A stretch of 64,000 nucleotides of DNA from an uncultured virus (IMG/VR IMGVR_UViG_3300025099_000015) (taxonomy: Duplodnaviria > Heunggongvirae > Uroviricota > Caudoviricetes), in IMG/VR virus record IMGVR_UViG_3300025099_000015; one strand, given 5' to 3'. The translations under genes and the position numbers were made by a program. How positions within the stretch are numbered: position 1 is the stretch's first letter; every line of letters starts with the position of its first letter. Positions 1,693 to 61,689 of this stretch are shown one piece after another. The notes beneath the pieces are model-generated. The model saw only the letters and a program-made list of their open reading frames with translations, ran no database searches and was not told the DNA's origin.

Positions 1693-2625
1693 TTATTGTC
1701 CTCCTATTCTTATACCAGATACAAACTCTTCCACAGTTAATACTTTCAGTTTATCTTTCTGTAAGTTTAACATGGGAAATAATTTCTTCGCAATTAAACG
1801 CTGTGCAACTGCTGAACAATTACAAGCATTACATATTACTTCTTGGGTATATTCTGGTTTACCCTGCGCTCTTAGTAGAGATGTTATCCATATTCCTGTA
1901 GCCATATAACTTCTTGAGAAGTGTATGTCATGTTCTAATACTAACTGATGCAAATACTCTACTACTATTCTACAATCACTTGTAAACTCTCTACTTGCAT
2001 TTAAGTCATTACATACTCTATCAATCCACGGAGAGATAGGCATACTTTGTAATACACTAGATTTACCTAAGAACCTAGCAAGATGTCTAGCATATTTAGA
2101 CACCTTATGTGGGTTTTCATTATTTGCAGTTGCTAACTCATTAATGCTTATAGGTAGTCCATATTCTCTAAGACATATAACTACTACAGCACATGCTCTT
2201 AGAGTTAATGGAATACCTGTAAACTTATGGTCGAAGTATAATCTTCGATAATAAGAATGAACATTCTCTTTCAATCTAATGTTAGGTAGATATGGGGATA
2301 AAACCATATTACATTCCATAAGTCCTCGGTTGATTGAAATATCTTTCTTGTTCCTAAACCTTCTTTGGGTTCTTTTCAAAGAACTAATTAAGTCTGTATT
2401 ATTGGTGCGTTCTTCCCCAATGAATGAACCCAATGCTCTATCTGCACCTTTAATAAAAATACCTGCACCTAAATTATAGTGATGGTCTGTTGATACTATT
2501 GTTCTATTAGTGTCCTCAAAGATATGAGTAACCTGAACAAAGCCACATGATACACATATTCGTTCACCTAACCTATCATCAAACATAAACTCATTACCTT
2601 CACACTCTATACAAATGCTACTCAT
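1693..2625 (-). CDS. tfb: Archaeal-type transcription initiation factor B (TFB/TFIIB)
   Basis: N-terminal Zn ribbon CIEC...GERICVSCG followed by two cyclin-like repeats (ACAVVVICLREYGLPISINEL; YTQEVICNACNCS). Confidence 0.85.
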   Translation of the reverse strand: MSSICIECEGNEFMFDDRLGERICVSCGFVQVTHIFEDTNRTIVSTDHHYNLGAGIFIKGADRALGSFIGEERTNNTDLISSLKRTQRRFRNKKDISINRGLMECNMVLSPYLPNIRLKENVHSYYRRLYFDHKFTGIPLTLRACAVVVICLREYGLPISINELATANNENPHKVSKYARHLARFLGKSSVLQSMPISPWIDRVCNDLNASREFTSDCRIVVEYLHQLVLEHDIHFSRSYMATGIWITSLLRAQGKPEYTQEVICNACNCSAVAQRLIAKKLFPMLNLQKDKLKVLTVEEFVSGIRIGGQ

Positions 2626-8033: not shown

Positions 8034-9191
8034 TCAACTCCAATTTCCTTTTAGTCTTTTAATTTGCTCGCTTGCTTCATGTTTCGTTAGTTCGTCTACA
8101 TCGCCTTCATAACCTAGCCTAACTAAATACTCCTTCTGCTTTTGAGTTGCTTGTTGTTGTCTACTATCACCATCTAATATATTCCATAGTGTAGAGACTT
8201 GTCCTTCCGTCAGGGTATGTCCTGATACTATTAACTTCTTAGCATTATTTAAGAAGTTTTCTTCCCAAGTGTTTCTTCCTTGCTCTTTAATGAATGGTTT
8301 TACTCCATAGAAATCACAACATTCTACAAAAAATGGTTCAAATGTAATCTCATGCACTTTATTTGCTACTTTAATTCGCCTTTTTCTTTGTTCATTTCTG
8401 ATGTTAATCTGATTTTCCTTGTGTTTCTTTAGAGTAAATGTTCTACGTTCAACAAAATCGTCTTCTTTTTTGACAATTGCTTCTGCTTTCTCTACATTAA
8501 AGTAGAACATTAATAGGTCATTCCATAGTTTTTGGTTAGGAAAACCCTTTCTATTTATCTGTGCTTTAGGGTTATCTGGGTGATTCCACCTCCAAACTAT
8601 ACTAGCCATTTGATAATCTAAGTCCCCAAAATCATATTTAGATACCTTTCTAATGAAGGTAGTATCTCTATATAATTGTAAGTCAGAGTCATAGTGTCTA
8701 CCTTTCTTTCTTACATTAACTCGTAAGTCTAAGTCTTTAACTCTATCAAACATTAGTGTGAATTGTTCACCGTTTTCTCTCCACCAAACTTTCTGTTTTA
8801 GTGCTTCGACTCTAACATTAATCCACTCTTCAATCATGTCATCAGTTATCATGTCGTCAGACAATGAAGGATTATCTTCCTTGATTGCTCTAAAGATTAG
8901 ATATGAATTGATGTGGTCTGAACCAACACACTCTCTTGTTCCATTCTCAGTATTAAGAATCTCAAAATGATATACTATATCATGACCGCATAGACAATTG
9001 TTCTGATGTTTAGCCGCCCAATCTGGTACTGCACTTAATTGATTCCACCAAACTTCTCCGGTTGCTATCCATTCATGTTTAGCCTCTTCGTAGTTGTCTG
9101 ATACAGATAACTCAACCATATTCTGGATTAGTTTCTTGTCCCATCTTCCTGTTCCTAATTCTCTTCTCATTTCATCACCGTTACTCGACAC
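8034..9191 (-). CDS. Hypothetical protein with N-terminal Zn-binding motif
   Basis: CLCGHDI...ECVGSDHI; C-terminal ATQKQKEYL...LTKHEASEQI helical motif. True start is probably the internal MRRELG. Confidence 0.6.
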   Translation of the reverse strand: MSSNGDEMRRELGTGRWDKKLIQNMVELSVSDNYEEAKHEWIATGEVWWNQLSAVPDWAAKHQNNCLCGHDIVYHFEILNTENGTRECVGSDHINSYLIFRAIKEDNPSLSDDMITDDMIEEWINVRVEALKQKVWWRENGEQFTLMFDRVKDLDLRVNVRKKGRHYDSDLQLYRDTTFIRKVSKYDFGDLDYQMASIVWRWNHPDNPKAQINRKGFPNQKLWNDLLMFYFNVEKAEAIVKKEDDFVERRTFTLKKHKENQINIRNEQRKRRIKVANKVHEITFEPFFVECCDFYGVKPFIKEQGRNTWEENFLNNAKKLIVSGHTLTEGQVSTLWNILDGDSRQQQATQKQKEYLVRLGYEGDVDELTKHEASEQIKRLKGNWS

Positions 9192-11614: not shown

Positions 11615-11820
11615 TTCTTTTATTCTCCTTTTTGTGTTAAAAGCAAGCGCGCAATGTCTTCTTGGACAGAATAATACAGCAGTAGGGCAAGAAGCATTTC
11701 TAACCTTATTCTAATCCCATTGGAAACACATTTTGCACCAGATACTCTATGATAACTGATACAATTTAACTTGTTTTGACTGTCATTTCTAATTTCTAAC
11801 GTTTCTAACCCCCCATCAGG

Positions 11821-11848
11821 GTAGGTAGGTAGGTAGGTAGGTAGGTAG
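11821..11848 (+). repeat. (GTAG)7 perfect tetranucleotide tandem repeat
   Basis: Read directly from the sequence. Confidence 0.95.
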
Positions 11849-12601
11849 TTGTTATATATATTAGTTAGAAATATTATAATATTATAAATATATAATTTTA
11901 ACATACTTACTATACCCTAACCCACTCATTTTGAGCAAACTCATTTCCAATCCAAATTAGAAATTAGAAACGTATTCGATAAACTATCATATCATATAGG
12001 ATATGCCATATTGATATGTGTATAAGATAAGAGATATATTATACATAGATAGCCTTCTCGGTTCATTAATCCTAAACTATGCTTATTCACTGTATAATAA
12101 ATTAAGCCATTAAATGTAATAGGTATAAATAGGCCATTGGCGGAATGCGTGTTTAACAGGCCATTAGATTTTAATTGCCGCCGACATTACAATCAAATCG
12201 AGTTAGTATATATACTGCGCGGCACCACCTCGATGCCCTCGCTCTACAACACGCTATTCTTTTTTTATTACTCTACAACCATATGGTGGCAGAGAGTGTG
12301 CATTAAGCACAAGAGAATCGTCCTTGTGCATACCCTAAAAAACCCCTCGGGTAAGTCCTAAACCTTTTCATTCCATTCATTATGGACTACCATATGGTAG
12401 CAGATATTCAGGAGATGATATGTTATGAACGACAAAGAATAAGAATATCTGCGTATCCACAAATTGAGGCACATCTTTAGTGTGACCATATGGTTCTAAA
12501 CTTTGTCCATAGAACCAGAAGTTTTGGAGACAAGAATAGGTATATTTCAACCTATCCTTGCCTACCGTTGTCGCCGACCAAAACTAAAGTTCAGAAGGCG
12601 A

Positions 12602-13111
12602 TTATTCCTCCTCCTGAACTTCGGTATAAGATGCACATGCATCTAAGCCGTCAGTAGTACCATCCCATTCTTTGGATTTGAATAATTCTCTAGCAGTTTG
12701 CTTGGCTTTAGCCACTAGAGTATTTGCGTAGTCATCGGCATCTAAAAACACAGGTGCGCCTTTAGATTTACCATGCTTTCGTAACAGGGGTTGTGAATAA
12801 GTCTGAGTAGTGGTGAAAAACAGATGAGCCGCTTCTCTAATTTCTGCACAAGCAGTTTCAACAACCATACTTGCCTCAATAGACAATAGTCCTTGATTAC
12901 CTCTTCTCCAGACTACTTGACCTGATGGGAAATCTTTCAACATCGCTTTTACTGATGCCGCTAGTGCGGTTCGGTTTGCGACATTATTATCTCCTGTCTC
13001 CATTAGCATGCTTACTAATGTTTTCACATCAATAGGTATTTCACTATCAATATCCCCATCTAAGCATGAGGCTACTTTATTCTTTACATTATTCCAATTA
13101 CTTTCTTCCAT
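12602..13111 (-). CDS. Orphan protein, cassette paralog 1
   Basis: 169 aa; shares MEE/D-x-x-WN start, HGKS-x-G, D/E-YA, WDGT and terminal QEEE with 15305..15844; has its own promoter-like motif. Confidence 0.8.
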   Translation of the reverse strand: MEESNWNNVKNKVASCLDGDIDSEIPIDVKTLVSMLMETGDNNVANRTALAASVKAMLKDFPSGQVVWRRGNQGLLSIEASMVVETACAEIREAAHLFFTTTQTYSQPLLRKHGKSKGAPVFLDADDYANTLVAKAKQTARELFKSKEWDGTTDGLDACASYTEVQEEE

Positions 13112-13158
13112 TTTAATTACCTTCCAATAATCCTTTCTTCCCTTTAGTTAGGTCAGCG

Positions 13159-13217
13159 ACATTATAATCTAACATAGTTAGTATATAAGGGGTTCTTGAC
13201 AAAGTCGAACCATATGG
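13159..13217 (-). promoter_or_regulatory. Conserved archaeal-type promoter (cassette 1)
   Basis: Minus strand reads CCATATGG-ttcg-ACTTTGT...CCTTATATACTAACT-N7-ATTATAATGT; near-identical to 13589-13651 and 17089-17149. Confidence 0.7.
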
Positions 13218-13588
13218 TAGGCTTGCTGAGAAATTAGAGATATATGGCATTAAGCCATCTCCTCTGCAAAACGTAAGTGGGGATACCTCATTTGTGTGGA
13301 GAAATCTATCATGAACAAATAATGTATTTCACGGTATTACTAAGGTAGCACTATTATTGCGCTACCTTATTCATACTGTTATGTTCATACATTACCTTTT
13401 ATCACTTCATGACCCTCCATATGGTTGTAGCGAAGGGATTGTTTCATTCCATCAAGTCTTCAAAGGATGAATACATATACTCTTCTGATATTTCTTTATC
13501 AGGCGTATTCAGCCAACGAAGCGCAGATGCAATGATTACAATACCAAGTGTAAGCCCTAAAATCTGGTTCTGTCCAATCTACGATGAA

Positions 13589-13651
13589 CCATATGGTAGG
13601 ACAACTTTGTTAAGGACTACCTTAAATACTAACTAATATCTATTATAATGT
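13589..13651 (+). promoter_or_regulatory. Conserved archaeal-type promoter (cassette 2)
   Basis: CCATATGG-taggaca-ACTTTGT...CCTTAAATACTAACT-N7-ATTATAATGT. Confidence 0.7.
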
Positions 13652-13772
13652 AGACAGCCCACCAATGCTTGACCGCTATCCAACAACGTGATGATGCCAT
13701 GAGACAATCTAAACGTATTTATTGGAAGTATAGCCACTTGGTTAAGGGCTGTCTCACCCTTTGGTGATTTTA

Positions 13773-13976
13773 ATGAATAACGAAACTACTACTATTATAC
13801 AACAAGTAAATGCCCCTAAATATGCTATCAAATTAAAGCATATGAAATCAGGACAGAACATTGTCCTCTCTATTGAGGAATTGAAGGTATCTGGTGATGA
13901 CCTTTCTATGGTTATGTCCGAATTAAGACAGGCTTTAGACGAATATATGTCTATAACGGGGGAATCTGAAGATTAA
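13773..13976 (+). CDS. Small hypothetical protein (67 aa) in cassette 2
   Basis: ATG at 13773 preceded by GGTGA ribosome site; ORF track 13761..13976. Confidence 0.65.
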   Translation: MNNETTTIIQQVNAPKYAIKLKHMKSGQNIVLSIEELKVSGDDLSMVMSELRQALDEYMSITGESED

Positions 13977-15196
13977 CTTCAGGTTCTATAGACAAAGTTT
14001 AGAACCATATGGTGTTAGATAAAACGATACTGTGTAGATTATAATCTAGTCAGTTGGCATTAGGCCAAGTCTAGCACCAGAGGGGCGGATGTTAGGACGG
14101 GTAGATGATAAGAATACACTCAAAGACAAAATATATTTTTACAAGGTGCAAAAGGGGGCTTTACAGAGTTTTAACCGATAATATTACGCAGTGGCTTAAT
14201 GCCACTAAATGCTAAATTAATATCATCTGAATCTGCAAAACCCCACTCTTTGCACTCTCAGAAAAATATATTTTTCTTCAGTTCCATCTTTACACTACCA
14301 TATGGTTGATTTTACATAATCTACGAAAATGGAAACATTTGCGTAGTTTAGTTAAGCGGTTAGCGGAAGTCAATCCCATTTTTGGCAATCGGGAAATGTC
14401 TCGTAGTATTAATCGGTCAGAGCCGCCCTAGACCTCTATACTACGTTCCTTGCTTAATGCAACCATATGGTTATACATTGTTAGTGGAGGAGGTTTCCTC
14501 TCGGAACGCCATGTATAATCCTCATTTGGGGGTTTATGTTTTACCCTGTGCTTAATGCACACCCATATGGAAGTAGCGTTGTTGTAATGTGTCATTAAGA
14601 ACACTTGCTAGGCAAGGACAACGTTAGCGGTTTCCACAATGGGGTAAGTTATAGACCAGTCTATTAACAACCATATGGACAAGAGAAAATACGCATTAAG
14701 CGTAAATAACGTGGTTTAGGGCTTGACCCCATTCAAAAATGGGGCATGGTCTATACATTATACAGTTTACAATGTTCACGGTATAAGTAATGTAGCACTA
14801 TTACTGCGCTACCTTATTGATACCTAAATGTTCACATCAAACTGTATTTCAATTATGACCAACCATATGGTTGATAAACGTATGTAAGTGGCATTAAGCC
14901 ACATCTTGAGGACAGTTTACAATCCCAAGATATCGGATATTGTACCAACTAAGCCGACAACATGTCTTGACGGATGCTTCTCATCGTTACTCTACGACTA
15001 GACGATGACAAGTCTCCTTACAACCCATAACGTCTATCGTTTTACACTACCATATGGGTGTAACCCTTAAGGCACGAATGGCTAATTCTTTCGCTCAATC
15101 ACAATTATATATTCAACGTATTGCTAGGACTTAATGTCCTTACTAATATATAATTACTCTTCGCTACAAGCAATTACCAATTACCACTTCGTTGTT

Positions 15197-15257
15197 CCAT
15201 ATGGTGTGATACTTTGTGGATGAACACCTTAAATAGTAAGTTAAAATGACTGTAATG
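15197..15257 (+). promoter_or_regulatory. Conserved archaeal-type promoter (cassette 3)
   Basis: CCATATGG-tgtgat-ACTTTGT...CCTTAAATAGTAAGT-N7-ACTGTAATG. Confidence 0.65.
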
Positions 15258-15304
15258 AAGGTGGCCTAACACCTAGTTATTTATATAACTTGGAGGAATA
15301 AATT

Positions 15305-15844
15305 ATGGTAGATTACAGTATGGAAGATAACACATGGAATGCGAAGAAAGAATTGATTGCAGAATGGTTCGATGCGAACCCTCAACATGAGGGTAGACGA
15401 GTCATTGCTGATGGACTATTTGCGATAGGTGACATGCAAAGCGACCTTCGTAAGAAGCATTGGTCTAGCATTAGTGGGATATTTGCTGATTTGAGCAATT
15501 CCCCTATTGGCGGCGGTAGAAGGTCATTGATGACAACCGCTATTAAATCGGATTTTGATACATACAAAGCAGATTATTGGCAGTATCAATATGACGTAGC
15601 ATACAATCAAGAACGCGGTTTTGCTAAAACACACGGTAAATCCGGCGGTGTCCTCTATAGAGATATGGATGATGGCCGCACAGAATACGCTGACAATCAA
15701 ACTAAGGTTATGTCCTTATTTTTGAGTCAATGCTACAATGCGTATGCTAAGAATGACGTATCAAAGCGTTATTTCTGGGATGGGACTTTCACACTAGAAG
15801 GTTATCCTAATGTAGTAGATAATGGGGGACAAGAAGAAGAGTGA
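15305..15844 (+). CDS. Orphan protein, cassette paralog 2
   Basis: 179 aa, GGAGG ribosome site; MEDNTWN, KTHGKSGG, EYAD, FWDGT, QEEE shared with 12602..13111. Confidence 0.8.
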   Translation: MVDYSMEDNTWNAKKELIAEWFDANPQHEGRRVIADGLFAIGDMQSDLRKKHWSSISGIFADLSNSPIGGGRRSLMTTAIKSDFDTYKADYWQYQYDVAYNQERGFAKTHGKSGGVLYRDMDDGRTEYADNQTKVMSLFLSQCYNAYAKNDVSKRYFWDGTFTLEGYPNVVDNGGQEEE

Positions 15845-16669
15845 TTAGGTGATAGGCCACCTTCACCCTTCTTTTTGTCCCTTTTTTCAGGTTCACGTTC
15901 TTTTAACAAAGTATTACCACTCCCACCATATGGTTGCAGTTCGTGATAAACACGGCCAACGGCAGTAGTTTATCTAACGATACAAATACATAGTTTGCCC
16001 CAGGTCTTAAACTTTATGTGGAGAGAGAGCATTGTCAAATCTACTTCGTAGCAGACTTAATGTCCTTTGTATGACTAATGCCCCCCATCCATATGGTGTT
16101 AGGAAGAACTATACTTATTAGTTCATAGAAACTAAGAAGTGGCGTTAAGCCAAGTCTAACACCAGATAACCTGAAGTCTCCCGCCCTCAAGACGGGTAGA
16201 TGATAAGAATCACTAGAATAAATAATATTTATGCGGGACATTTGTGTAGCGTATACGTGCTTTCCCTATACGCATTATGAATACAAGGGCTAAATGCCCT
16301 ATACTGTATTATTCATAATACTAGAAAAGCACCGTAATCGCACACACCATACCCGCATAAATATATTTATCCTGTTCCTTTCTTTACACTACCATATGGT
16401 GTCATAACGTAGTATAGATAGTCCCCAATACGTTTGGGGTCGGCCTAAGTCTTCCCACCACGGTTCTAGGCATAATGCCTGAGACTAGACTCCTACCATA
16501 TGGAACAATGAAATGGTTTTTTGTGATTTTTGAAATGGTGAAGGTTTTTTAACATGGTATAGTGCATTTAGCACTTGATTACAATTAATGTGAAAAAGCG
16601 TGAAGCCATGAAATAATAACGAAAAAGTCTCCTTAAGGGCTACACCCATATGGGTGTATACTTTGTTAA

Positions 16670-17090
16670 TAAACCCACAAGGTCGAGCGTTGTTTATAAC
16701 ACCTGCAACCTACTAACGCACTAATGGCTAGCCTTTCGGTTGGATGCACTGGAATAACTTACGGGATTTCCACTTCTATTTCCCACTCGTTTATGTGGTC
16801 TAGTTTTTTATTTTATGAGTCCATTAAACTATCGTTTGGCTCAATCCTTGAAACTAGAAAAACAGGGGAGTGAGTGGGTTGATATTTCTACCGTCCACCA
16901 ATTCTGAATGGGTATCTATATTCGCATGTAGCATTCACCCCAGAAAACTTACCATAGAAGAGTTACCTTCCTTTCACTGACCGACTTATTATTATCGGCC
17001 TCGTTGTTCCACCACAGAACATGGCATTCCATTAGCCCTAGATAACGGACTTATTCTGGCACACTCATGTCGAGTTACGTTTCCTCGACA
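16670..17090 (-). ncRNA. Putative ~420-nt structured non-coding RNA (cassette 4)
   Basis: Downstream of a conserved promoter, no ORF of 60 aa or more in the track, several stems (ATGTCGAG/CTCGACAT, CTAATGG/CCATTAG, CCCACTC/GAGTGGG, CTAGTTT/AAACTAG). Ends are approximate. Confidence 0.5.
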
Positions 17091-17149
17091 TTATAATAGA
17101 TATTGATTAGTATTTAAGGTGTTATACCACAAAGTATAACACCATATGG
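17088..17149 (-). promoter_or_regulatory. Conserved archaeal-type promoter (cassette 4)
   Basis: Minus strand reads CCATATGG-tgttat-ACTTTGT...CCTTAAATACTAATCAATATCTATTATAATGT, almost identical to 13620-13651. Confidence 0.7.
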
Positions 17150-18959
17150 TTGTAATAGTATCTAGGTAATAGAACTATAAGGCATTAAGCCGTTCTATGG
17201 ATACTATGCTAACAACCAGAAGGGGAGACACCTGGGGAGGAGACGACATGGGGTAGATGTTATTGTTTAGTATACTGTAACTCTAATGTCTCTTCCAACT
17301 GTAAGGCTAGTCCAAATAAACATTGGCTTAATGCCAATACATTACTTACCTGAACCAGTTTAGGTTCAGCGCGTATGTATGCTGTTAAATATTCTCCTAG
17401 CCTTGAAAGTTTCCGAAGACTTAGGTAAAGTAACCTACACTTTAACACTACCATATGGTTATATTCGGGGAGATATAGGAGAAGACGGTTGAATATCAGA
17501 TGTTCTTGGAGTGCGCCTTCGCACTCACTAGAACCATGCATTAAGCATGATGATATCGTCTTCTTCCTATATAGAGTCAATAATAACCACATTTGTGGTA
17601 TTGATAATAGTTCCCCTGACTTTACTCCGTTTAGGCAAATTGCGGAACATGGTTGCACGGTAAGTATTACTTAAGCCGCCACATACAACTGTGCTTAATG
17701 CACTATTCGTTTTATGTATGTTTGCGTGATAATACTTACCAGTTCACCTCGTTCCTCCATTGCCTAAACAGAGTAAACTCAGATATAACTTAACACTACC
17801 ATATGGTTCGCATTCTTAGTAGATATGCGTTTAGCAATAAACAACGGGAGTGGTTGGTGTGTCGCTAAGAATTGTGACCGCATTGGGGATAATCTAAACT
17901 ACGTTTATGATACCATATGATTGTATTTGTTTGAGCGTAGCGAGTTCAATCTAATAGATTGGGACTCACCTTTTGTTCGGTCAACGTCCACTCAGGCCGT
18001 TTCACGTTGCTTCATTACCGACCTCCCTTACAACAGTGTGCTTAATGCACAATCATATGGTATTAAATTACATCCTTCAATATTTTTAGTAACGTAGTGG
18101 TAAAAGTGTTGTGATGAAACATTCAGTAAAAGTGAAGCGTTTCAATGCTTTTAACTAGAAATAGCAGGATGATGTAACAGCGAAGCGTTTCATATCCTTA
18201 AGGCTGCTTAACGCTACGCTACACCCATATGGTTGCATAAAAGATGCAGATAGATGGGAGTGTATCTCCAGCATTCGTGTGCAGTGGTGAAAGGTGATGC
18301 ATTAAGCATCAGTGAAACGTCTATTGAAACTACGCACGGAGAATGCTTGGTAGATATCACACCCAACTACTGATATTTTATGTGATTAAACCCGACCCTT
18401 AAGGTGTGATTCATTCACACTGCTTTAACCTCCTTCTTCTGGTCTCCCCTCCTCTCTACTATTGCTTAACGCAACTATACGTTATTCCGAGGGAGAGTAA
18501 GACCATCATCAGTGGTTAACGCTTTACGTTTCTCCCACCATATGCTTTGTCCTTCGATTTTTTTTTATTTTAATTGACATAAGATTTTGTCTTTAGAAAC
18601 CCTAAATTAATATAGTGTTACTCATGTGGGTCTAATAGAAGGCTGTTGAGCATCAATGTATGAATCGCTATTAATAATTAATTCGCGGTGCATCAAGGAT
18701 ACAAATGAATCAATAAAAGAATACACATTAACCACCAATGCTCAAATAAACCCTCACTACAGGTAATGAATTAATTCTTATTCTGGGAATGGACAAAAAA
18801 GAGCAAAAAAATAAACGCAAGTGCCAGAAAAATAACACCCCAAAAATAGGATAAAAAAGGTCTAAAAAATATGCCCCAAAAAAATGGTGAGAAAATGAGA
18901 ATGCCGAATATGTTCTATAATCAAGGTAGTATGTACCATCCTGTAAAGGGGGTTTTACA

Positions 18960-19951: not shown

Positions 19952-20443
19952 ATGAATTGGTTAGATGTTATTAAACGTAAACGCGGTAATAGGCGTAAGC
20001 GTGTGCCGTATAATCCATTTACTGGAGAAGGCGATAAGCCTGTAAACATAGAAGATAGAATGAAAGCAAGGGATGAAAAGACCAAAGAAAGAGAAGCAAA
20101 GGTTGCTGAAAGTTTTAAGAAAGTTCCTAGAGCAAGAATATCTATACAACGTGGTGGTGGCAATAAAGTCCATCCCCACACGAATAGGCGTAAGTCGAGA
20201 TATGAGTTGGCACCAGAAGGTGCTAATCTTAATCCGGCATCTAGGTGTGCAATGTGTGGAATTAAATTGACTAATAATCAGCAAACTAAAACATTAAACA
20301 ATGCCGCAGATTTAAATTATTGTGCTGCTTGTGCTAGAACTATTGAAGGAAAACCTGTTGCTTCGCGTAGAACTAATGCTAAAGGTCAGATTATACCACT
20401 TGATAATGCTAATAAAAGGCCATATAAAAAGAGGCGATTGTAA
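19952..20443 (+). CDS. Basic Zn-finger protein (W-x-x-I-x-K family)
   Basis: MNWLDVIKR; CAMC...CAAC. Confidence 0.65.
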   Translation: MNWLDVIKRKRGNRRKRVPYNPFTGEGDKPVNIEDRMKARDEKTKEREAKVAESFKKVPRARISIQRGGGNKVHPHTNRRKSRYELAPEGANLNPASRCAMCGIKLTNNQQTKTLNNAADLNYCAACARTIEGKPVASRRTNAKGQIIPLDNANKRPYKKRRL

Positions 20444-20688
20444 TGAGTTGGAAAGAAGTAATTAAGGAATATGAAGGTAGCATAGAAGAACAAAAGCACA
20501 TTGAAACAATGGATAAGATTAGGGCTTTGTTGGAAGAAGGAGATACCTCAAATGCTCTTGATTTGGCTATGAGATTATTAGGTCAATTCACCGATGGTTT
20601 CTTTGGGGATATTCACGATATTATAAGAAAAGAGGTAGGCGAAGAAGGCCTAAGAGATATAATAGAAGGAATTGCGTTTGGATATTGA
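20443..20688 (+). CDS. Hypothetical protein (W-x-x-I-x-K family)
   Basis: MSWKEVIKE; overlapping stop/start. Confidence 0.65.
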   Translation: MSWKEVIKEYEGSIEEQKHIETMDKIRALLEEGDTSNALDLAMRLLGQFTDGFFGDIHDIIRKEVGEEGLRDIIEGIAFGY

Positions 20689-20698
20689 GGGATTTAGA

Positions 20699-20836
20699 AT
20701 GAGTTGGGAAGACATAATTAAAATGAAATGCATGATGTGTGGTGCTAAATTAGAAAAGCAACCTTCTAAAACTAAATATGCAAGAAATAGAGCAATATAT
20801 CTTTGTCCCGAATGCGGTCATAAGGAAGTCTTTTAA
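20699..20836 (+). CDS. Micro Zn-ribbon protein (45 aa, W-x-x-I-x-K family)
   Basis: Manual translation MSWEDIIKMKCMMCG...CPECGHKEVF. Confidence 0.7.
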   Translation: MSWEDIIKMKCMMCGAKLEKQPSKTKYARNRAIYLCPECGHKEVF

Positions 20837-21171
20837 TGAGTTGGATGGCTATTTTAAAAAATGTTGATTTAGATGAAGACAATTGCTGTGAAGCATTGGC
20901 TACAGATTTAGAACTACTATTTGAAAATCTTATTTTTAATGACTTTGTGAGTTTTATTAAAAAGAATAAAAATAATTGTGAGGTATTAGTTCCTGAAGTA
21001 GAAAGAATATTGGGTGAAGGTATGTCGTATTTCAAAAGAAAATATATAATTGATTCACAGATACTTTCTGTTGCTGATGAAGGCGAAATATATCAAGTAA
21101 TAAAAGACATGTATGCTAAATATTTAGATTGTAATGAGGATTTACTATCAATGGGAGAGGACATGAGATGA
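20836..21171 (+). CDS. Hypothetical protein (W-x-x-I-x-K family)
   Basis: MSWMAILKN. Confidence 0.65.
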   Translation: MSWMAILKNVDLDEDNCCEALATDLELLFENLIFNDFVSFIKKNKNNCEVLVPEVERILGEGMSYFKRKYIIDSQILSVADEGEIYQVIKDMYAKYLDCNEDLLSMGEDMR

Positions 21172-22088
21172 AGTGGTTTAACATAATTAAAGACTTTAAG
21201 TATTCTCATGGTAAATATGCCGATGTTGATTCACAAGGTTTACAAGGTTATCGAGGAGTGCCTAAAGAAGCGGCAGGGTTTTCACGCGGAAACATAGCAA
21301 GTATTAATTTAAGTGCTAATGCATGGAAAAATATGTTGTATGATAAAGACGGTAATTACGAACAAGAAAATGAAGAACAAGTAATAAGAGAAATGAGCAA
21401 TACATTGAGTCATGAATATGCACATGTGTTATTCCATAAACTTTCTGGGTATACTGGTTTAAAATCTGAAATAGGTGGAGTTATGTCAGATATAATGCTT
21501 GGATTACTATTAGAGATTGATGACAAGAATCTGTTTGATTTAGATGAAAAAACTAGCAAGTTATTAGCGGCGTGTAAAAAACATGCAGCAACAATTATAC
21601 TTGATGAATTATATGCAGGGTATGCAGGTAAAAGTGTTGAAGGAATAAGCAGAATAATAATAGATAAATACAAAGATTATTGGCGAGACGATTTTAATAA
21701 TACTCTTCGGAGAACAAAATCTAGTGTAATTAATAGACTACAAGAGGCAATAGGAGAAAGTGAAGAGTTTTCTCACATGGAAAAGTTAATTATAGACATA
21801 AGATTCCCTAATGTAGTAGAATACATGGGACAAATTACGCAGTTAATGGAACGTGCTTGGTCTGAAACTGTAGACTTTATTTATAAACGGATGCTGGATG
21901 TTCAACAAAAGAGGTTTTACTTAGGCACACTACCTGAAAGAGAAAACACTACCATAGGAGAAATGACAGTTATGATTAGTAGATACATAGACAACGCAGG
22001 TTATGAGGATATTCAAAGATATATTAATGGTGAAGATTTAAACGATAAAGTGCTTGAAGAAATTGGTTTTAGTAGGAGGAGAGGATAA
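21168..22088 (+). CDS. Putative zincin-like metallopeptidase (W-x-x-I-x-K family)
   Basis: MKWFNIIKD; TLSHEYAHVLF HExxH motif with downstream DELYA Glu. Confidence 0.55.
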   Translation: MKWFNIIKDFKYSHGKYADVDSQGLQGYRGVPKEAAGFSRGNIASINLSANAWKNMLYDKDGNYEQENEEQVIREMSNTLSHEYAHVLFHKLSGYTGLKSEIGGVMSDIMLGLLLEIDDKNLFDLDEKTSKLLAACKKHAATIILDELYAGYAGKSVEGISRIIIDKYKDYWRDDFNNTLRRTKSSVINRLQEAIGESEEFSHMEKLIIDIRFPNVVEYMGQITQLMERAWSETVDFIYKRMLDVQQKRFYLGTLPERENTTIGEMTVMISRYIDNAGYEDIQRYINGEDLNDKVLEEIGFSRRRG

Positions 22089-22243
22089 TGAAGTGGTTTA
22101 CAATGATAAAGCATAGAAAGATGTGTGAAAATCCTGGGTGTTATAACCGAATGTCTCCTACTGCAAAGTCTAAAGGAAAAAAAATATGTGCCACTTGTGT
22201 TAGAAGAAGTGGTAAAGGTAGAATGCGAGTTAATAAGGAGTGA
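22088..22243 (+). CDS. Micro Zn-finger protein (51 aa, W-x-x-I-x-K family)
   Basis: Manual translation MKWFTMIKHRKMCENPGC...CATC. Confidence 0.65.
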   Translation: MKWFTMIKHRKMCENPGCYNRMSPTAKSKGKKICATCVRRSGKGRMRVNKE

Positions 22244-22785
22244 TTACTATAATTTGGTTTAATGTTCTAAAAATATCCACTAGGGATGCTATCAGTGATG
22301 CAAAAAGATTTGCGCCTGAAATGATAAGAGAACAAGAAAAATTAGATAGAGAAGAAAAAGAAGAAGGGATAAAACGTGCTAACCAAGCAGATAAAACAAA
22401 ATATTATGTTCCCCCTGAACAACTTCCTAGAATAAACGATTATCGGTTTGCACCTAAAGCATCAAAAACTAGTCGCGGTCAAACTACTACTAATTGGCAT
22501 TCTTTTCTTAGGACTTATATTCCATATTTTGTTACTGATGCAGAATATATTACATATAAAAAGAATAAAAGAGACTTAAATAAATACAGTAAGATATGGG
22601 AAAACTCTCGTCAATTACTTCCTCAAGAACAGGAATTAGTAGAAAAAATGGCAGATGAAAATGCAGAAATATATGCGACTGCTATTTGGAGATGGGATTA
22701 CTTTTATCATGGTACTCGTTTCTTTGAAGAAGGCAAAGAAGAAGGATTGAGGCAAGAGAATGCAAGGTTTTGGGGTAGAGAATAA
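22240..22785 (+). CDS. Hypothetical protein (W-x-x-I-x-K family)
   Basis: IWFNVLKI near the N-terminus. Confidence 0.6.
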   Translation: MITIIWFNVLKISTRDAISDAKRFAPEMIREQEKLDREEKEEGIKRANQADKTKYYVPPEQLPRINDYRFAPKASKTSRGQTTTNWHSFLRTYIPYFVTDAEYITYKKNKRDLNKYSKIWENSRQLLPQEQELVEKMADENAEIYATAIWRWDYFYHGTRFFEEGKEEGLRQENARFWGRE

Positions 22786-23138
22786 TGACTTGGTTTGAAT
22801 TAATTAAATCTGGCGAACTAAAAGAGTTTGAGGTTCTAGCACAAAAATATGCAGAACCTACCGACTTAACCCATTTAGATTATCTTAGAAAGAAACATGG
22901 TAAGAAAAGCAAAGAGTTCTATGATATATTAAATAAACAAATTATTGAAACAATAGATGATAATTGGTCTAGTTTACAAGATATTGCTAAATCACTAAGA
23001 GATAAAAACCCAGGATTAAAAGATGCAGATGAAAACTTAATATCATTTTTGAGAAAAAGGTTAGATAACATGGATGTAAAAACATTCCAAGAACCTGCTG
23101 CGGGAAGAACAGGAAAGAAAACATATTACAAGGTGTGA
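22785..23138 (+). CDS. Hypothetical protein, possible winged HTH (W-x-x-I-x-K family)
   Basis: MTWFELIKS; SSLQDIAKSL...GKKTYYKV. Confidence 0.6.
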   Translation: MTWFELIKSGELKEFEVLAQKYAEPTDLTHLDYLRKKHGKKSKEFYDILNKQIIETIDDNWSSLQDIAKSLRDKNPGLKDADENLISFLRKRLDNMDVKTFQEPAAGRTGKKTYYKV

Positions 23139-56521: not shown

Positions 56522-58657
56522 ATGACAGTAAATGAAATATATACAGGTGCAGGTGCATCGGCAACAATGATACCAGAAAGAGATTTTAATCTATCTGAAG
56601 CATTTGGTGATACTACCCATAACTTACTAGCAACAAAAACCAATGATACAACAACTTTAGAATGGACAGTAGCCAACGACAAAAGATTAGTTACTAATAT
56701 TTATCAAGGATGTATGGCTAAGATAGATAAATACAATTCTTCTAATGTTAATCAAAATCATACTCAAACATTACTCATAGAATCTAATGATGCAAACTCA
56801 ATAACATTTTCTCAAGCGTTATCAGCAACTAGCGGTGATAAATATAAATGCACGATTCTAGCATTTGGTGCGCCTGTATATTCTCCTGATATGATTGATG
56901 GAAAACCTTCCTTGTTATCAGATAATTGGTTAGGCTTAGTAAACACATTTACCCCGCCTAGCATTGATGCGGAGATGAAGCAATCTAATCTAGCATTAGG
57001 TGGAACAAGAAACTTTGGTTATCAATTCAAAGGTGCTGAAACAGTAGGTGAAGCATCTATTGATTGCTCTCTAAATAATGGTTCTTGGTTATACTATGCT
57101 TTAGGAAATATGACATTATCTCATACATCCGGTAATTCAAACACATTAGCATCTGGTTTAACCGCAGGTAAAGCATATGCATTACCTTCTGGTGGTAGTG
57201 AAATATACAGAGTAGAAGATAGTAGAATATTACCTCCATTTAACGGTGTTAGTGCAACAGCAGATAAATTAAACTCAATTACAATAACTAATGATGGTTC
57301 GCAAATACCTTTTTCTGTATCGCAACCATTAACAATAACAGGCAATGCAACGGCTACATATGCACTAACTAAAGAAAAGCATACTATCACTTGCACAACC
57401 GAGACTGGAAGTAATTATGATAGTAAAAGTATAACCATTAAAACTCCAAGTGCTACAGGTGCATCAGCATCAGCAGTAGTATATACATTCTGGTTTGATA
57501 TTGATAATGCAGGTGCTTCACAACCTACTGTTAGTGGAACCACAACATATGTTGAAGTTAATACAATAAGTAGTAGTGATGGTGCGGCACAAGTTGCTAC
57601 TGCTTTATCTACTCTTATTAATTCGCAAAATGGTTTAACTGCTACTGTTAGTGGTGCAGTTATTACTGTTGAATCAACATTTGGTGGTTATGTAGCAACC
57701 CCTGTTACTTTAACAGGTAGTTCTCACCCATTATCAAAAACACAATTAGTTATAGGAGGAGAAATAGAATCAGTTACTATCACTAACAAAGGAAGTGGTT
57801 ATAGTGGTGTGCCAACTATTAGTCCTATCACCACAGGTAATGTTAATGCTACATTTACAGCAGTATTAGGTGCTGATTCTAAAGCAGACTATGATGAAAT
57901 TACATCGGATATTACATACACTATTACAGAAAATGATACAGGTGAATTACCTTCATTTGCATTAGAAGTAACACATGAAAAAGGTAATGTTCCTAATGCT
58001 GATTATTTCCAAGATGCAAATACACAAAATCTAATGTCTTACATATACACAGGTTGTCAAGTTAATACATTAACATTAAACTTTGAAGAAGGACAAGAAG
58101 TTACTACTTCAATTAGTGCAGTTTCCAGAAAGGCTCATCGTGCTGAAACTAACTATGTGCCTAAAAGACAAGTAAGGACTACAAGTGGCCTGTTTAATTT
58201 TAGCAGCACAGATTCTGATAATAACCCTTACATGTATTCTGATGGAACTATCAAAATGTATGGACAAACACTTGGTAGAATTAAAAGTGGTAGTGTTACA
58301 ATTAATAATAGTATAACTCCACATCGTTACATTGGTAATTATGATAGAACAATGGCTAGCGCGCATACTGCCGGACAAAGAACATATGAAATTAATCTAA
58401 CTATGATGATGACTGATAGAACAATATGGGATGAATTAAGAAACCAAAATGAAACTGATAATACAATAGGATTGATTGAAATAGAGTTTGCTAAATCTGC
58501 AACTGATAAAATTGTAATGAAGTTTAATGACTATCTTACTACACAAGTAGATGTGCCTTTCCCAGATGATAAAGGGGCAATAGAAGTAAACCTAACAGCC
58601 CAGGCTAGAACATTACACTCTTGCACATATCAAGGAAAGTGGACAATACTTAGTTAA
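56522..58657 (+). CDS. Major tail (tube) protein with large Ser/Thr/Gly-rich inserted domains
   Basis: WLYYALG, LPSFALE, YTGCQVNTLTLN, GQRTYEINL tube-like motifs; precedes chaperone and tape measure genes. Confidence 0.7.
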   Translation: MTVNEIYTGAGASATMIPERDFNLSEAFGDTTHNLLATKTNDTTTLEWTVANDKRLVTNIYQGCMAKIDKYNSSNVNQNHTQTLLIESNDANSITFSQALSATSGDKYKCTILAFGAPVYSPDMIDGKPSLLSDNWLGLVNTFTPPSIDAEMKQSNLALGGTRNFGYQFKGAETVGEASIDCSLNNGSWLYYALGNMTLSHTSGNSNTLASGLTAGKAYALPSGGSEIYRVEDSRILPPFNGVSATADKLNSITITNDGSQIPFSVSQPLTITGNATATYALTKEKHTITCTTETGSNYDSKSITIKTPSATGASASAVVYTFWFDIDNAGASQPTVSGTTTYVEVNTISSSDGAAQVATALSTLINSQNGLTATVSGAVITVESTFGGYVATPVTLTGSSHPLSKTQLVIGGEIESVTITNKGSGYSGVPTISPITTGNVNATFTAVLGADSKADYDEITSDITYTITENDTGELPSFALEVTHEKGNVPNADYFQDANTQNLMSYIYTGCQVNTLTLNFEEGQEVTTSISAVSRKAHRAETNYVPKRQVRTTSGLFNFSSTDSDNNPYMYSDGTIKMYGQTLGRIKSGSVTINNSITPHRYIGNYDRTMASAHTAGQRTYEINLTMMMTDRTIWDELRNQNETDNTIGLIEIEFAKSATDKIVMKFNDYLTTQVDVPFPDDKGAIEVNLTAQARTLHSCTYQGKWTILS

Positions 58658-58856
58658 ATAACATAAAAACATAAATAATCCTTTTCTGATATGGTGGTGA
58701 CAAAAATTAAAAAAGAATCTACAAAAGAGTGGGTCTTAACACACAAGAATGGAAAGTTTTTGTCCATCTTAGGAGGCCTAAAAAGGATTTAGGCTAATAT
58801 TTATATTCCACTAACATTGTTTGTTTGTTAGTTAAAGTTGAAGGTGGAAAAAGAAA

Positions 58857-59213
58857 ATGGAAAACATAGTAAGTGATAAGAACCGGCTATTTGCCGCAAT
58901 AGAAACAGAATGTCATATTTTGAAAGTAGACGAAACTTCAGAAGATGTATTGAAGGTGTGGGTTAAAGAACCTACATGGCTTCAAGTAGAACAAGCACTA
59001 GGGACAGTAATGAAACTAGATGCAGATACACAAAGTTTAGATTTAGATTTAAACAAGATGTATAAGTTTATGGTTGAAAACTTTATAGAAAAAACAGAAC
59101 CACAGTTAAACACACTAGAATTAATGCGTTTATCTCCATTCATTGGGGCGCAATTAAAAGAAGTGTTACCAAACCCGTTTGATGACCTCATGGGGGCTGA
59201 TACGGGAAACTAA
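58857..59213 (+). CDS. Tail assembly chaperone (gpG-like)
   Basis: Between tube and tape measure genes; ends on slippery G GGA AAC TAA. Confidence 0.75.
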   Translation: MENIVSDKNRLFAAIETECHILKVDETSEDVLKVWVKEPTWLQVEQALGTVMKLDADTQSLDLDLNKMYKFMVENFIEKTEPQLNTLELMRLSPFIGAQLKEVLPNPFDDLMGADTGN

Positions 59214-59413
59214 AGGATGTTCGTAGAGCCTTAAAGGGAAGGGAAGTTAATCCCGTAATAGGCTCTCGCATCCTTTTATATTCATATTGTATTGCTTTTA
59301 AGGTAAGTCCTTTAGAAGCATACAACACACCTGCTAACATAATACTTAGTATGTTAGCAATACATACACAAGCAAAGAAAATAGAACAAGAAGAAATGGA
59401 AAAAATGAAGTGA
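59204..59413 (+). CDS. -1 frameshift extension of tail assembly chaperone (gpGT-like)
   Basis: X XXY YYZ heptamer GGGAAAC at 59204-59210; the -1 frame is open for 69 codons to TGA at 59411-59413, 4 nt before the tape measure start. Confidence 0.75.
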   Translation, partial: GKLKDVRRALKGREVNPVIGSRILLYSYCIAFKVSPLEAYNTPANIILSMLAIHTQAKKIEQEEMEKMK

Positions 59414-59417
59414 TATT

Positions 59418-60944
59418 ATGGCAGATGATACAAAAAAGTATGTATCGCAATTAGCAAATGATATGCAAGTATTAGAGTCAAATGCTACATCTTTAACTAG
59501 GGCTTTTGGAGACTTAGGAGATGCTAGTAATAAATGGTGGACTATTCTTGCTAGATTGAGTTCTGGTAGTGGTTTATGGAAGTTTCAAGCAAGGCTACGT
59601 TCAGTATCTAACTTGTTTGAATTATATTATAAAGCACAAGATAAAGCATTACAAAACACTTTGAACAGCCTTGATGCGGCTCAGAAATTAACGGGTGCTT
59701 TTGAAAGAGTAGAAAACAAATATAGTATGTTTTCTAAAAACATAGGAAAGATAACTAAAAAACAAAAAGCAGATGATGTTTTTAGTGTGTATATGGCTAG
59801 ATTAAAAGATGAAGAAAAAGCATTCTATTTTACACAAAAAACTTATGCTTCCGCACATAAAAAGTTTAGAAGGCAAATGAAGAAAGATAATAAAAAACTA
59901 AAAAAGCAGATGAGATTACCATATTCTGCTAAACAATTCGGAGGTATTTTTAATAGAAAGGGCAAAATTAATGCCGATGGTAGTGAACAAAAAGGAACTT
60001 TAAGAAAAGGAACTATACTAGGGGACGTTGCACCAATGAGAGCAGGTAGAAAAGCATTGTCAATGGGTAAATCAGCATATGGTTTTTTTACTAAAGGTGG
60101 TGCAGAAAAAAGCACCCTTAGCGAAAGATACGGGAAAGCAGATAAACGAGGTGTAGTATATGGTGCAAAGAAGTTTAAGGCTGAACAAGCAAGATTAAAG
60201 GAAGCAAATAAGTTTCGTAAAAGAATGGGTAGAGTTGCTAAAAGTTTTAAGGATAAATTAATGCCGGCTCTTACTGCTATGAGTAAAGCGATTCTTCAAG
60301 TAGTAGTAAAGGCTTTAATGGGATTCTTAATCTATTTACCTTTAATTATTATCGTATTCATGGCTTTAAGAAAAGCATTTGGCCCTGTTAGAGAGTGGGC
60401 TAGAAAGAATGAACATTTATTTATACAAATAAAAGAACAAATTATTGAATTATATTATGTTATGAAAGAATTGTTCCGAGCAATATTTGATGGTGATATT
60501 ATAAAAGTATTAAAAATATGGTTTACACAAGTATTACCATTAGTAGCAAGAATACTGTTTAATGTCGCTAAGGTAATTTTAACAGCATTAGCCGTAATTA
60601 TACATAGTGTATTCAAGACTTTTTACGATGTATTACAAAATCTTTGGGGTGCCGCTAAAAGTTATATTTCAAAGAAATTAAGTTTCCATGCAAGTGGTGG
60701 AACTGTTAATACTCCATTACAAATAGTTGGAGAAAGAGGGCCAGAATTAGTATCTTTGCCTAGAGGCTCACAAGTATATCCAAATGGAATGGCGGTTAGT
60801 GGTGGTGGCTCAACTACAATAAATGTTCATGTGAATGGTAGGGTGGGTGCATCCGATTCAGAGATAAAAGATATAGCAAATAAGGTTGCTAAAGAAATTA
60901 ATCTAAGAATGAATAGAACAGGAACAACAGGAACGGGATTCTAA
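59418..60944 (+). CDS. Tail tape measure protein
   Basis: Helical, hydrophobic segments, C-terminal HASGG...VGERGPELV motif; canonical position. Confidence 0.8.
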   Translation: MADDTKKYVSQLANDMQVLESNATSLTRAFGDLGDASNKWWTILARLSSGSGLWKFQARLRSVSNLFELYYKAQDKALQNTLNSLDAAQKLTGAFERVENKYSMFSKNIGKITKKQKADDVFSVYMARLKDEEKAFYFTQKTYASAHKKFRRQMKKDNKKLKKQMRLPYSAKQFGGIFNRKGKINADGSEQKGTLRKGTILGDVAPMRAGRKALSMGKSAYGFFTKGGAEKSTLSERYGKADKRGVVYGAKKFKAEQARLKEANKFRKRMGRVAKSFKDKLMPALTAMSKAILQVVVKALMGFLIYLPLIIIVFMALRKAFGPVREWARKNEHLFIQIKEQIIELYYVMKELFRAIFDGDIIKVLKIWFTQVLPLVARILFNVAKVILTALAVIIHSVFKTFYDVLQNLWGAAKSYISKKLSFHASGGTVNTPLQIVGERGPELVSLPRGSQVYPNGMAVSGGGSTTINVHVNGRVGASDSEIKDIANKVAKEINLRMNRTGTTGTGF

Positions 60945-60945
60945 A

Positions 60946-61680
60946 ATGGTAGCGGCAACAAATAGAGTAATGATTGAATTAAGTAGAAGGGCATCAGCAG
61001 AAAATCCTTCAGAAGCGAACACTATACATACAAATAGAATATCTTTATTATGTGATTCAGTAAGTATAAGCACATCTAAGAATGCATTTCCATTTGATAT
61101 TCCATTCTCTGGTGTAATTTCTGGAGAATCATCAACAATGGTTATGGATTTAGGGGCGGCAAGAAAAGAAGTGCAATTACAAGGCACGATACGCGAACAA
61201 GAAATTACTAAGTTTAAGGGAGGAGATGAATCAAGTGCTAAAACAGTATCTTTAACCTCTTATGAAGTCGCTCAATTATTACATTCATATGTTGATTCTT
61301 CTTTCGTGCATGAAGACCAAAACATTAGTAAATTAATATTGTTAATACCAAGTAGGGCTGATAATAATTTTGAATATAGAAATACTTCAAATGGCACAGG
61401 CCACATTAATGTAACTAAAACTACTCCATTAAATGAATTACCATTAATACCATTTCATTTCGCAAATAGAAGTTACGATGTAACATCTTGGTCTTTTGGA
61501 CATACAAAGAAAACATTCGATTACTTCCAAACAACTACTGATGAAATAGAAGGACTTAGAGGTTTTGTGTCTACCTTTTCTACTGATATAGCGGGTGCAG
61601 AAACACCTCATATTGGTTTCAGTATGACGTTTATTCAATCTTCCACATTAGTTTCAGACTTTATTAACACAACATTTTGA
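60946..61680 (+). CDS. Putative distal tail/baseplate hub protein
   Basis: Position after tape measure; MDLGAARKEVQLQG. Confidence 0.5.
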   Translation: MVAATNRVMIELSRRASAENPSEANTIHTNRISLLCDSVSISTSKNAFPFDIPFSGVISGESSTMVMDLGAARKEVQLQGTIREQEITKFKGGDESSAKTVSLTSYEVAQLLHSYVDSSFVHEDQNISKLILLIPSRADNNFEYRNTSNGTGHINVTKTTPLNELPLIPFHFANRSYDVTSWSFGHTKKTFDYFQTTTDEIEGLRGFVSTFSTDIAGAETPHIGFSMTFIQSSTLVSDFINTTF

Positions 61681-61689
61681 GGAATATAT

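Follow-up and report, generated by a model that had tools for sequence, protein, structure and literature searches.

An uncultured caudovirus record, IMGVR_UViG_3300025099_000015, which by its gene content is a magrovirus, an ocean virus of archaea, of a group B-like kind, contains a dense array of short modules joined by a repeated symmetric palindrome. Relatives carry these modules in different orders and orientations, and the breakpoints fall at the palindromic joint. We analyzed the 64,000-nt stretch that holds the array (the window) together with related viral loci, and we put at about one half the probability that the modules are self-contained units traded by site-directed exchange at the joint.

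Twenty-six palindromic joints bound 25 modules

The exact palindrome CCATATGG occurs 23 times in the window, always within positions 12279-18232, compared with a mean of 0.80 and a maximum of 3 in shuffled sequences; three one-mismatch sites (17913, 18053 and 18538) complete an array of 26 joints. The joint has the symmetric form (A)CC-ATAT-GG(T), and its sequence conservation comprises the 8-bp palindrome and about five weak positions. Four of the 25 modules are transcription cassettes, whose cargo is two paralogous genes (P1 and P2), a 67-aa open reading frame (ORF67) and an RNA resembling the manA motif (Table 1). Across 11 arrays (the truncated L003 and L011 and the duplicate L018 being omitted), hairpin arms with a CTTTG tip stand at both ends of 44 modules, at one end of a single module and at neither end of 149; every genome of this subclade carries four promoter-cargo cassettes.

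The other 21 modules in the window lack CTTTG arms, and most contain a pentaloop hairpin (stem-C-RYTWR-G-stem). Eighteen such hairpins lie in the array versus one in the remaining 57.7 kb of the window, and 62 of 63 are in the 5' half of their module, that is, nearest the upstream palindrome on their own strand. Folding of the gene-less modules, whether as RNA or as DNA, is strong (median z about -2.2 to -3.4), and these modules diverge between relatives with compensatory changes. These folds, and the structured RNA of one cassette, would suit an RNA-processing array, in which structured RNAs are freed from a read-through transcript by cleavage of the AUAU linker that separates the stems, and shuffling is secondary. 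We consider such an array very unlikely: the motifs occur on both strands with a polarity set by the site, the modules invert freely, their end-to-end closure is at chance level (p = 0.52), and the cassettes possess promoters of their own.

Several smaller regularities were seen among the modules. Of ten modules with variant outer bases in the palindrome, four show corresponding changes at their two ends (GA where the module begins and TC where it ends; window 17913-18060, L004 7024-7179, L005 8497-8652 and 9411-9546), which suggests end-to-end pairing of these four. A 60-nt hairpin (13328-13387 and 14775-14834) is common, at 85% identity, to two modules, and the modules at 14005-14305 and 16089-16399 are paralogs, of which L002 holds a chimera. 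The gene-less modules of L010 and L013 have the loop word CGCTAAG followed by a AACGAAGTG-like word, and those of L014-L016 have GCCTAAG; these loci belong to other subclades, and the palindrome is unchanged in both sets. Besides the manA-like RNA, four Rfam matches in the array region were all far under the cut-off.

Module order and orientation differ between relatives

Fourteen viral loci encode relatives of P1; the array is present in 13 (truncated in two), and the contig of the other, L019, ends at P1. The record G001 is 100% identical to the window over the array, and comparisons were made with relatives. Three of these, 88-97% alike in their cassettes, were compared junction by junction. 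In L002, whose cassettes are 93-97% alike, a window counterpart exists for 22 of 24 modules, mostly end to end; 19 of its 22 mapped junctions are new and three are common to the window, seven modules are inverted and four are missing. L035 has seven new and three common junctions among ten mapped, and its ORF67 and manA cassettes are inverted with respect to P2 (the contig end leaves only 59 nt of the manA module); L036 has nine new and one common among ten, with ORF67 flipped. All of the new junctions in these three relatives fall at a palindrome, and the flanks remain colinear, the left flank of L002 at about 92%.

Flips were also found for P2, ORF67 and manA in L005, for P2 in L010 and for manA in L013. 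A first-pass annotation, made from the window's sequence, had proposed invertible or exchangeable gene cassettes and had suggested comparing orientation and cargo in relatives. Both do differ, and the proposal is supported: three cassettes flip, while P1 is in the same place and the same orientation in all 14 of the 14 rows. What moves is any module between palindromes, not the four cassettes alone.

The breakpoints are precise. Matches between genomes mostly span a module from the first to the last base between palindromes, most junctions have only 8-10 bp in common, and reading by eye found no order-changing breakpoint at the equally repeated GCATTAAGC hairpins. Variant palindromes within arrays differ only at the outer base, and a T variant moves with its module (window 18053 and L002 1562), which together place the crossover inside the palindrome. 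Beyond the P1-bearing loci, a pattern scan from which 80 of 98 stretches, on 59 contigs, were taken gave 79 new loci with 3-21 sites each; their 443 distinct segments have arms at both ends (233), at one end (89) or at neither (121). Clustered palindromes were also present in four of four genomes picked by a different gene.

Every genome compared is metagenomic, and 30-50 nt are common to some cassette ends, as might be expected if the differing orders were mis-joined contigs. We find this barely credible. The window order recurs in another record (L033/G001), a single contig covers the whole stretch, positions 13535-14991 stand in that order on a contig of another run, and orders differ among relatives whose modules have also diverged. 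The word lengths usual in assembly are well above the 8-10 bp common to most joints.

Cassette ends carry local hairpins that open in the joint

The first-pass annotation had bracketed each cassette with inverted, inward-pointing ACTTTGT words. All eight are present, 4-13 nt from the palindromes it named, and the orientations it gave the cassettes are correct. The words are not parts of a simple terminal inverted repeat: each is the loop of a covarying local hairpin of 20-30 nt. Among 85 distinct arms, the GG of the palindrome opens the stem, a CC closes it mostly 20-30 nt further on, and the tip is RC-TTT-GY. The R:Y pair closing CTTTG is Watson-Crick in 66 of the 85 (46.7 +/- 3.4 when shuffled), and the outer stem has 2.95 pairs compared with 1.89 +/- 0.08 when arms are swapped. 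On the TTT strand G-T outnumbers A-C by 31 to 8, although the genomes are related and the choice of stem, which permits G-T, slightly favors that count. Closure from GG to CC is strong at cassette ends (mean 5.6 bp versus 3.3-3.5 in controls) and weak in other modules (3.9).

A panhandle model, in which the two ends of a module form a simple terminal inverted repeat, was rejected in favor of local hairpins. Cognate ends (201) are little more alike than shuffled ends (175 +/- 9), and pairing between the two ends of a whole module stays at the chance level (p = 0.06 for cassettes and 0.52 for other modules). Ends of different cassettes can be closer: 12485-12523 and 13975-14013 are 95% alike over 39 nt, closer than the two ends of one cassette can be, and the best such end-to-end repeats between cassettes extend over 39-51 nt at 80-95%.

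On the strand that reads away from the joint, the hairpins are without exception on its 3' side. At the promoter end of a cassette, the CC that closes the arm adjoins a TATA-like motif, CCTTAWATASTAA-N9-AYTRTAATG; the manA match begins about 25 nt downstream of this motif. The motif has four exact matches, one per cassette as annotated in the first pass, versus 0.00 expected. The same arm also occurs at terminator ends, on the antisense strand. Because the TTT strand precedes the start at the promoter end and is antisense at the terminator end, the hairpin is outside the cassette's own RNA, which points to DNA; we infer that joint and hairpins are recognized in that form. A fifth promoter-like copy (12185-12214, minus strand) lies outside the array, faces the leftward operon, and has neither palindrome nor arm.

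These cassette ends invite a comparison with the PeSL elements of T4-type phages. By analogy, palindrome and arm could be shared regulatory parts (a regulator site, an insulator or a promoter element), with general recombination using the short repeats and selection keeping the crossovers at borders. This by-product account, which we judge possible but on the unlikely side, is favored by the arm that adjoins the TATA motif, by the 39-51 nt common to ends of different cassettes, by chimeric modules, by the presence of Sak4-like and exonuclease genes, by slow shuffling, and by the PeSL precedent as given in the available text (PMC2839356). It does not sit well with junctions that mostly have only 8-10 bp in common, with an arm that also stands antisense at terminator ends, or with a fifth promoter that has neither element. 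Moreover, most modules in the window's subclade are promoterless yet shuffled as much as the cassettes.

A candidate mechanism for exchange at the joint

In the mechanism that we propose for site-directed exchange, strand exchange inside CATATG would excise, re-insert, reorder and invert whole modules; since the joint is palindromic, any end could join any other in either orientation and the joint would be rebuilt. A sequence-specific dimer would mark the joint, and the virus's own nucleases, Sak4-like annealase and ligases would perform the exchange. Genes of these kinds (Sak4-like, PD-(D/E)XK and ERCC4 nuclease, and two ligases) are encoded by the relative G007. Exchange would proceed over evolutionary time, probably also between co-infecting viruses, rather than as phase variation, and its likely benefit would be that early host-interaction cargo is gained, lost and swapped with promoters and folds intact.

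The candidate for the dimer is a conserved, single-domain LAGLIDADG-like protein of 132 aa, encoded in the replication block between ligase and clamp-loader genes, and its putative target is the joint ACCATATGGT. It is 55-61% identical among G001, G006 and G007, has 89 homologs, and occurs on contigs of G002-G010. As in LAGLIDADG homing endonucleases, the protein has a single-domain fold (that of I-TnaI; TM 0.83) and is modelled as a homodimer. The dimer model scored 0.81 (best control 0.01; 97% or more of the contacts common to the runs; pLDDT of 89 or above), with a score mark that was reached by 20 of 30 solved pairs and one of 23 single chains, and a pass may reflect solved LAGLIDADG look-alikes. 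According to the available text of PMC3394308, LAGLIDADG proteins span a site of about 22 bp around four central bases, which become cohesive overhangs; such a footprint would fit a CC-ATAT-GG site with weakly conserved flanks.

Several observations weigh against site-directed exchange. Tyrosine recombinases (PF00589) were found in none of nine records, of which five are 90% complete or more (the control gave 14 of 14), and neither serine recombinases (PF00239) nor Y1 HUH transposases (PF01797) in any of the five near-complete relatives. At the place after helix 1 that homing endonucleases use for the catalytic acid, in the probable register of the motif, the LAGLIDADG-like protein has I, L, P or A-type residues (alignment A2), and so appears to lack that acid. 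Its gene is a clade core gene, so co-occurrence with the array is not independent support, and the protein is at most a candidate binder of the joint. The genomes are kin to each other, so the junction counts are not independent events, and crossovers confined to module borders could be the work of selection alone. Ordinary homologous exchange acts here too, as is shown by chimeric modules and by the near-identity between ends of different cassettes. Finally, inversion or circular junctions, which the first-pass annotation had proposed to look for, were absent from contigs of three DNA runs, although contigs drop rare variants, and near-identical pairs keep their order (window/L033, L015/L018 and L016/L017). 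Together, these last two findings suggest that shuffling is slow and is not phase variation, and rapid inversion is unsupported.

Cassette cargo

P1 and P2, called paralogs in the first pass, are 21% identical by BLASTP (E 1e-4) and match in profile-profile comparison (97.8%, E 8e-13). Their family has 70 representatives at E up to 0.001 and is without a known fold. Searches of Pfam and PHROG gave no family for either protein, Atlas gave only unnamed or low-share portal clusters, and P1 had no match among GenBank phages. A role for P1 and P2 as recombinases was considered and is unsupported: the model is all-helical (pLDDT 79), with no PDB match at Z of at least 8 and no viral-structure match at E of 0.001 or below. 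In both mRNAs the 5' untranslated region (UTR) pairs with the 3' UTR of the same transcript (P1, 13157-13110 with 12575-12610; P2, 15256-15275 with 15846-15865). Across 20 P1 and P2 cassettes of differing sequence, this pairing averages -35 kcal/mol, versus -19.5 across paralogs and -23.6 across genomes.

Cassette 4 had been described as having no ORF. Its longest minus-strand ORF is indeed 27 aa, and we add that it holds a manA-like RNA, which is therefore not in the 5' UTR of a gene. The RNA matches the model over its full length, in sequence and structure, at a score just under the gathering cut-off, and it starts where the promoter motif ends. Seven relatives carry the RNA at 39-50 bits; no manA match was found in L013, where the cassette is only 203 nt. 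In the available text of Weinberg et al. (2010, PMC2864571), manA RNA (RF01745) is a 5' UTR element and riboswitch candidate from marine samples and cyanophages, whereas this archaeal virus has it alone in a cassette, behind a promoter of its own and followed by no ORF. This arrangement challenges the riboswitch reading and makes a trans-acting role testable.

The ORF67 cassette is enlarged to 1.2-1.6 kb with extra ORFs in L010 and L013-L016; among these is a gene of about 240 aa for which Pfam and PHROG gave no family. Contigs from an RNA run, of a related strain, cover 12576-13146, 15265-15838 and 16763-17074, inside the other three cassettes and downstream of their promoters. This cover is a weak hint of transcription, coming from contigs of one run with possible DNA carry-over, and contig depth cannot rank expression. 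The same run did not cover the ORF67 cassette or the gene-less modules, which is not evidence of silence.

Table 1. Positions of the array, its cassettes and the candidate joint-binding protein (window coordinates unless a locus is named).
Feature	Position	Strand	Remarks
Whole array	12279..18545	.	26 CCATATGG-type palindromic joints, 25 modules
Cassette 1 (P1)	12486..13217	-	Fixed at left end of array in all rows compared
Terminator-side hairpin arm, cassette 1	12492..12516	+	GGT-stem-ACTTTGT-stem-ACC
P1 ORF, 169 aa	12602..13111	-	All-helical model; no Pfam, PHROG or clear PDB match
TATA-type promoter motif, cassette 1	13160..13190	-	
Promoter-side hairpin arm, cassette 1	13191..13211	-	Directly upstream of TATA motif
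Cassette 2 (5' hairpin and 67-aa ORF)	13589..14012	+	Flipped in L005, L035, L036
Promoter-side hairpin arm, cassette 2	13595..13621	+	
TATA-type promoter motif, cassette 2	13620..13650	+	
Long 5' leader hairpin, cassette 2	13652..13753	+	Whole transcript folds with z -2.9
67-aa ORF, from ATG	13773..13976	+	Homologs in relatives; no PHROG match
Terminator-side hairpin arm, cassette 2	13982..14006	-	Part of 39-nt end 95% like terminator end of cassette 1
Example module without CTTTG arms	14005..14305	.	A C-RYTWR-G hairpin on each strand, located in the half closest to the palindrome upstream of it
Cassette 3 (P2)	15197..15933	+	Flipped relative to flanks in L005, L010
Promoter-side hairpin arm, cassette 3	15203..15228	+	
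TATA-type promoter motif, cassette 3	15227..15257	+	
P2 ORF, 179 aa	15305..15844	+	P1 paralog
Terminator-side arm, cassette 3	15890..15927	-	Stem longer, weaker
Cassette 4 (non-coding RNA)	16646..17149	-	Flipped in L005, L013, L035
Terminator-side hairpin arm, cassette 4	16652..16676	+	
manA-like structured RNA	16867..17090	-	RF01745, model 1-192, 54.3 bits (gathering 55.2), E 5e-12
TATA-type promoter motif, cassette 4	17089..17119	-	
Promoter-side hairpin arm, cassette 4	17118..17143	-	
LAGLIDADG-like protein	L021:5497-5898 (G001); L027:3599-3997 (G007)		Highly conserved, apparently non-catalytic

Relation to known shuffling systems

Integrons also shuffle cassettes (through attC sites and IntI), and the ends of their cassettes form single-strand hairpins whose shape is conserved and whose sequence varies, as the ends do here. 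The array differs in that no tyrosine recombinase was found in the relatives searched, and in that crossover takes place in a perfectly palindromic word. Its cassettes stand in both orientations with promoters of their own, whereas those of integrons share one orientation and mostly lack promoters. In shufflons and invertase systems (Rci, Hin/Gin), several segments invert at short repeated sites. The array has no adjacent recombinase (PF00239 and PF00589, 0 of 5), its core is symmetric, modules are gained and lost, and switching at the population level was not seen in the contigs searched. The lack of a Y1 HUH transposase in the near-complete relatives likewise sets it apart from IS200/IS605 and REP-RAYT elements. 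In the engineered loxPsym/SCRaMbLE system, as the available description has it, Cre recombines non-directionally at sites with long conserved binding arms, and, with many symmetric sites present, segments are inverted, deleted and reordered at fixed joints. The array is similar in these outcomes and differs in being natural, with weakly conserved flanks, no known recombinase and an evolutionary pace.

The PeSLs are the nearest of the known systems. The available text of Arbiol et al. (2010, PMC2839356) describes them as cassettes with sigma-70 promoters and about 100 bp of conserved sequence. Like them, the array is a variable region of a lytic virus in which promoter and stem-loop units flank orphan genes, and genes are gained, lost and shuffled at the element between close relatives. 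Its joint is only an 8-10-bp palindrome, rather than a conserved substrate of about 100 bp, and its promoter is TATA-like rather than of sigma-70 type. The array also has the same hairpin at both ends, conserved in structure rather than in sequence, its modules invert, and most of them in the subclade lack a gene or promoter. Excised mini-circles are a further PeSL feature; for the array, no such joints appeared in the contigs of three DNA runs, in which rare variants are dropped.

We describe the clade-wide system as a variant form of cassette shuffling whose recombination mechanism has a fair chance of being new. A more specific version, which we offer tentatively, is a natural, orientation-free, multi-site shuffling like SCRaMbLE, outside the known tyrosine, serine and HUH families: a domesticated LAGLIDADG-like dimer, or another unrecognized protein, would mark the CC-ATAT-GG joints, which single-strand hairpins flank, and breakage and rejoining in the self-complementary core would let the virus trade whole gene and RNA cassettes, including the free-standing manA-like RNA. 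If exchange is site-directed, it would represent an unrecognized recombination chemistry with a 10-bp symmetric site. Either way, this is a precisely jointed, clade-wide accessory-gene array in abundant ocean viruses of uncultured archaea that have been described as lacking integrases; the profile of the Aoguangviridae includes no integrase or transposase (PMC10768690). The palindrome array is not mentioned in the main text of the magrovirus papers searched (including PMC5434244) or in the available text of PMC10768690.

Genomic setting

Products encoded by the window include a capsid protein, portal, terminase, prohead protease, tail tube, ATP-dependent ligase and ribonucleotide reductase, and the nearest GenBank phage matches of the capsid protein are haloviruses only, at about 25%. 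In the available text of Philosof et al. (2017, PMC5434244), magrovirus group B is marked by a split PolB, two ATP-dependent ligases, a ribonucleotide reductase, divergent replication and structural blocks, and no integrase. The complete relative G007 (60 of 113 ORFs covered by the Pfam scan and 43 of 113 by the PHROG scan) has the split PolB, both ligases and the reductase, with a clamp loader and the annealase and nucleases named above. Most of these have homologs in G001, homologs of the group B marks occur in G001 and the window, and the match of the G007 gene set to group B underlies the assignment of the window.

The array sits where leftward and rightward genes diverge, and the cumulative GC skew of the window has its minimum inside it, at 15189; in G007 the minimum (61235) also lies within the array (sites 56671-61908). 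Such a position could mark a multi-unit replication origin, whose palindromes would be initiator sites and whose hairpins would be priming or loading signals on the displaced strand, with nicks or stalled forks causing the shuffling. The hairpin polarity would suit the strand displaced by a fork leaving the site, the candidate binder is encoded in the replication module, and Rep binds a CTTTG hairpin tip in the terminal repeats of AAV (PMC5511163, available text; an analogy only). We nevertheless hold an origin to be unlikely. Skew may merely track the coding strand, the skew extremes of G006 (10 and 54854) are outside its array, which lies near a contig end, the number of sites varies from 3 to 26 or more, and CTTTG arms specifically bracket transcription units.

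Other features of the surroundings include a TFIIB-like protein at 1693-2625 (minus strand) with a weak zinc-ribbon match, which could read the cassette promoters. The 385-aa ORF at 8034-9191 matched only viral clusters without a name. No tRNA gene was found in the window; in relatives, one or two lie about 1.5-2 kb from the array (L004 12339-12422, L010 12121-12569, and others). To the left of the array, a short run of tandem GGTA repeats (11820-11848) is followed by an AT-rich stretch. To its right, at 19952-23138, many small rightward ORFs have the N-terminal word M-x-W-x-x-I-[IL]-K in common.

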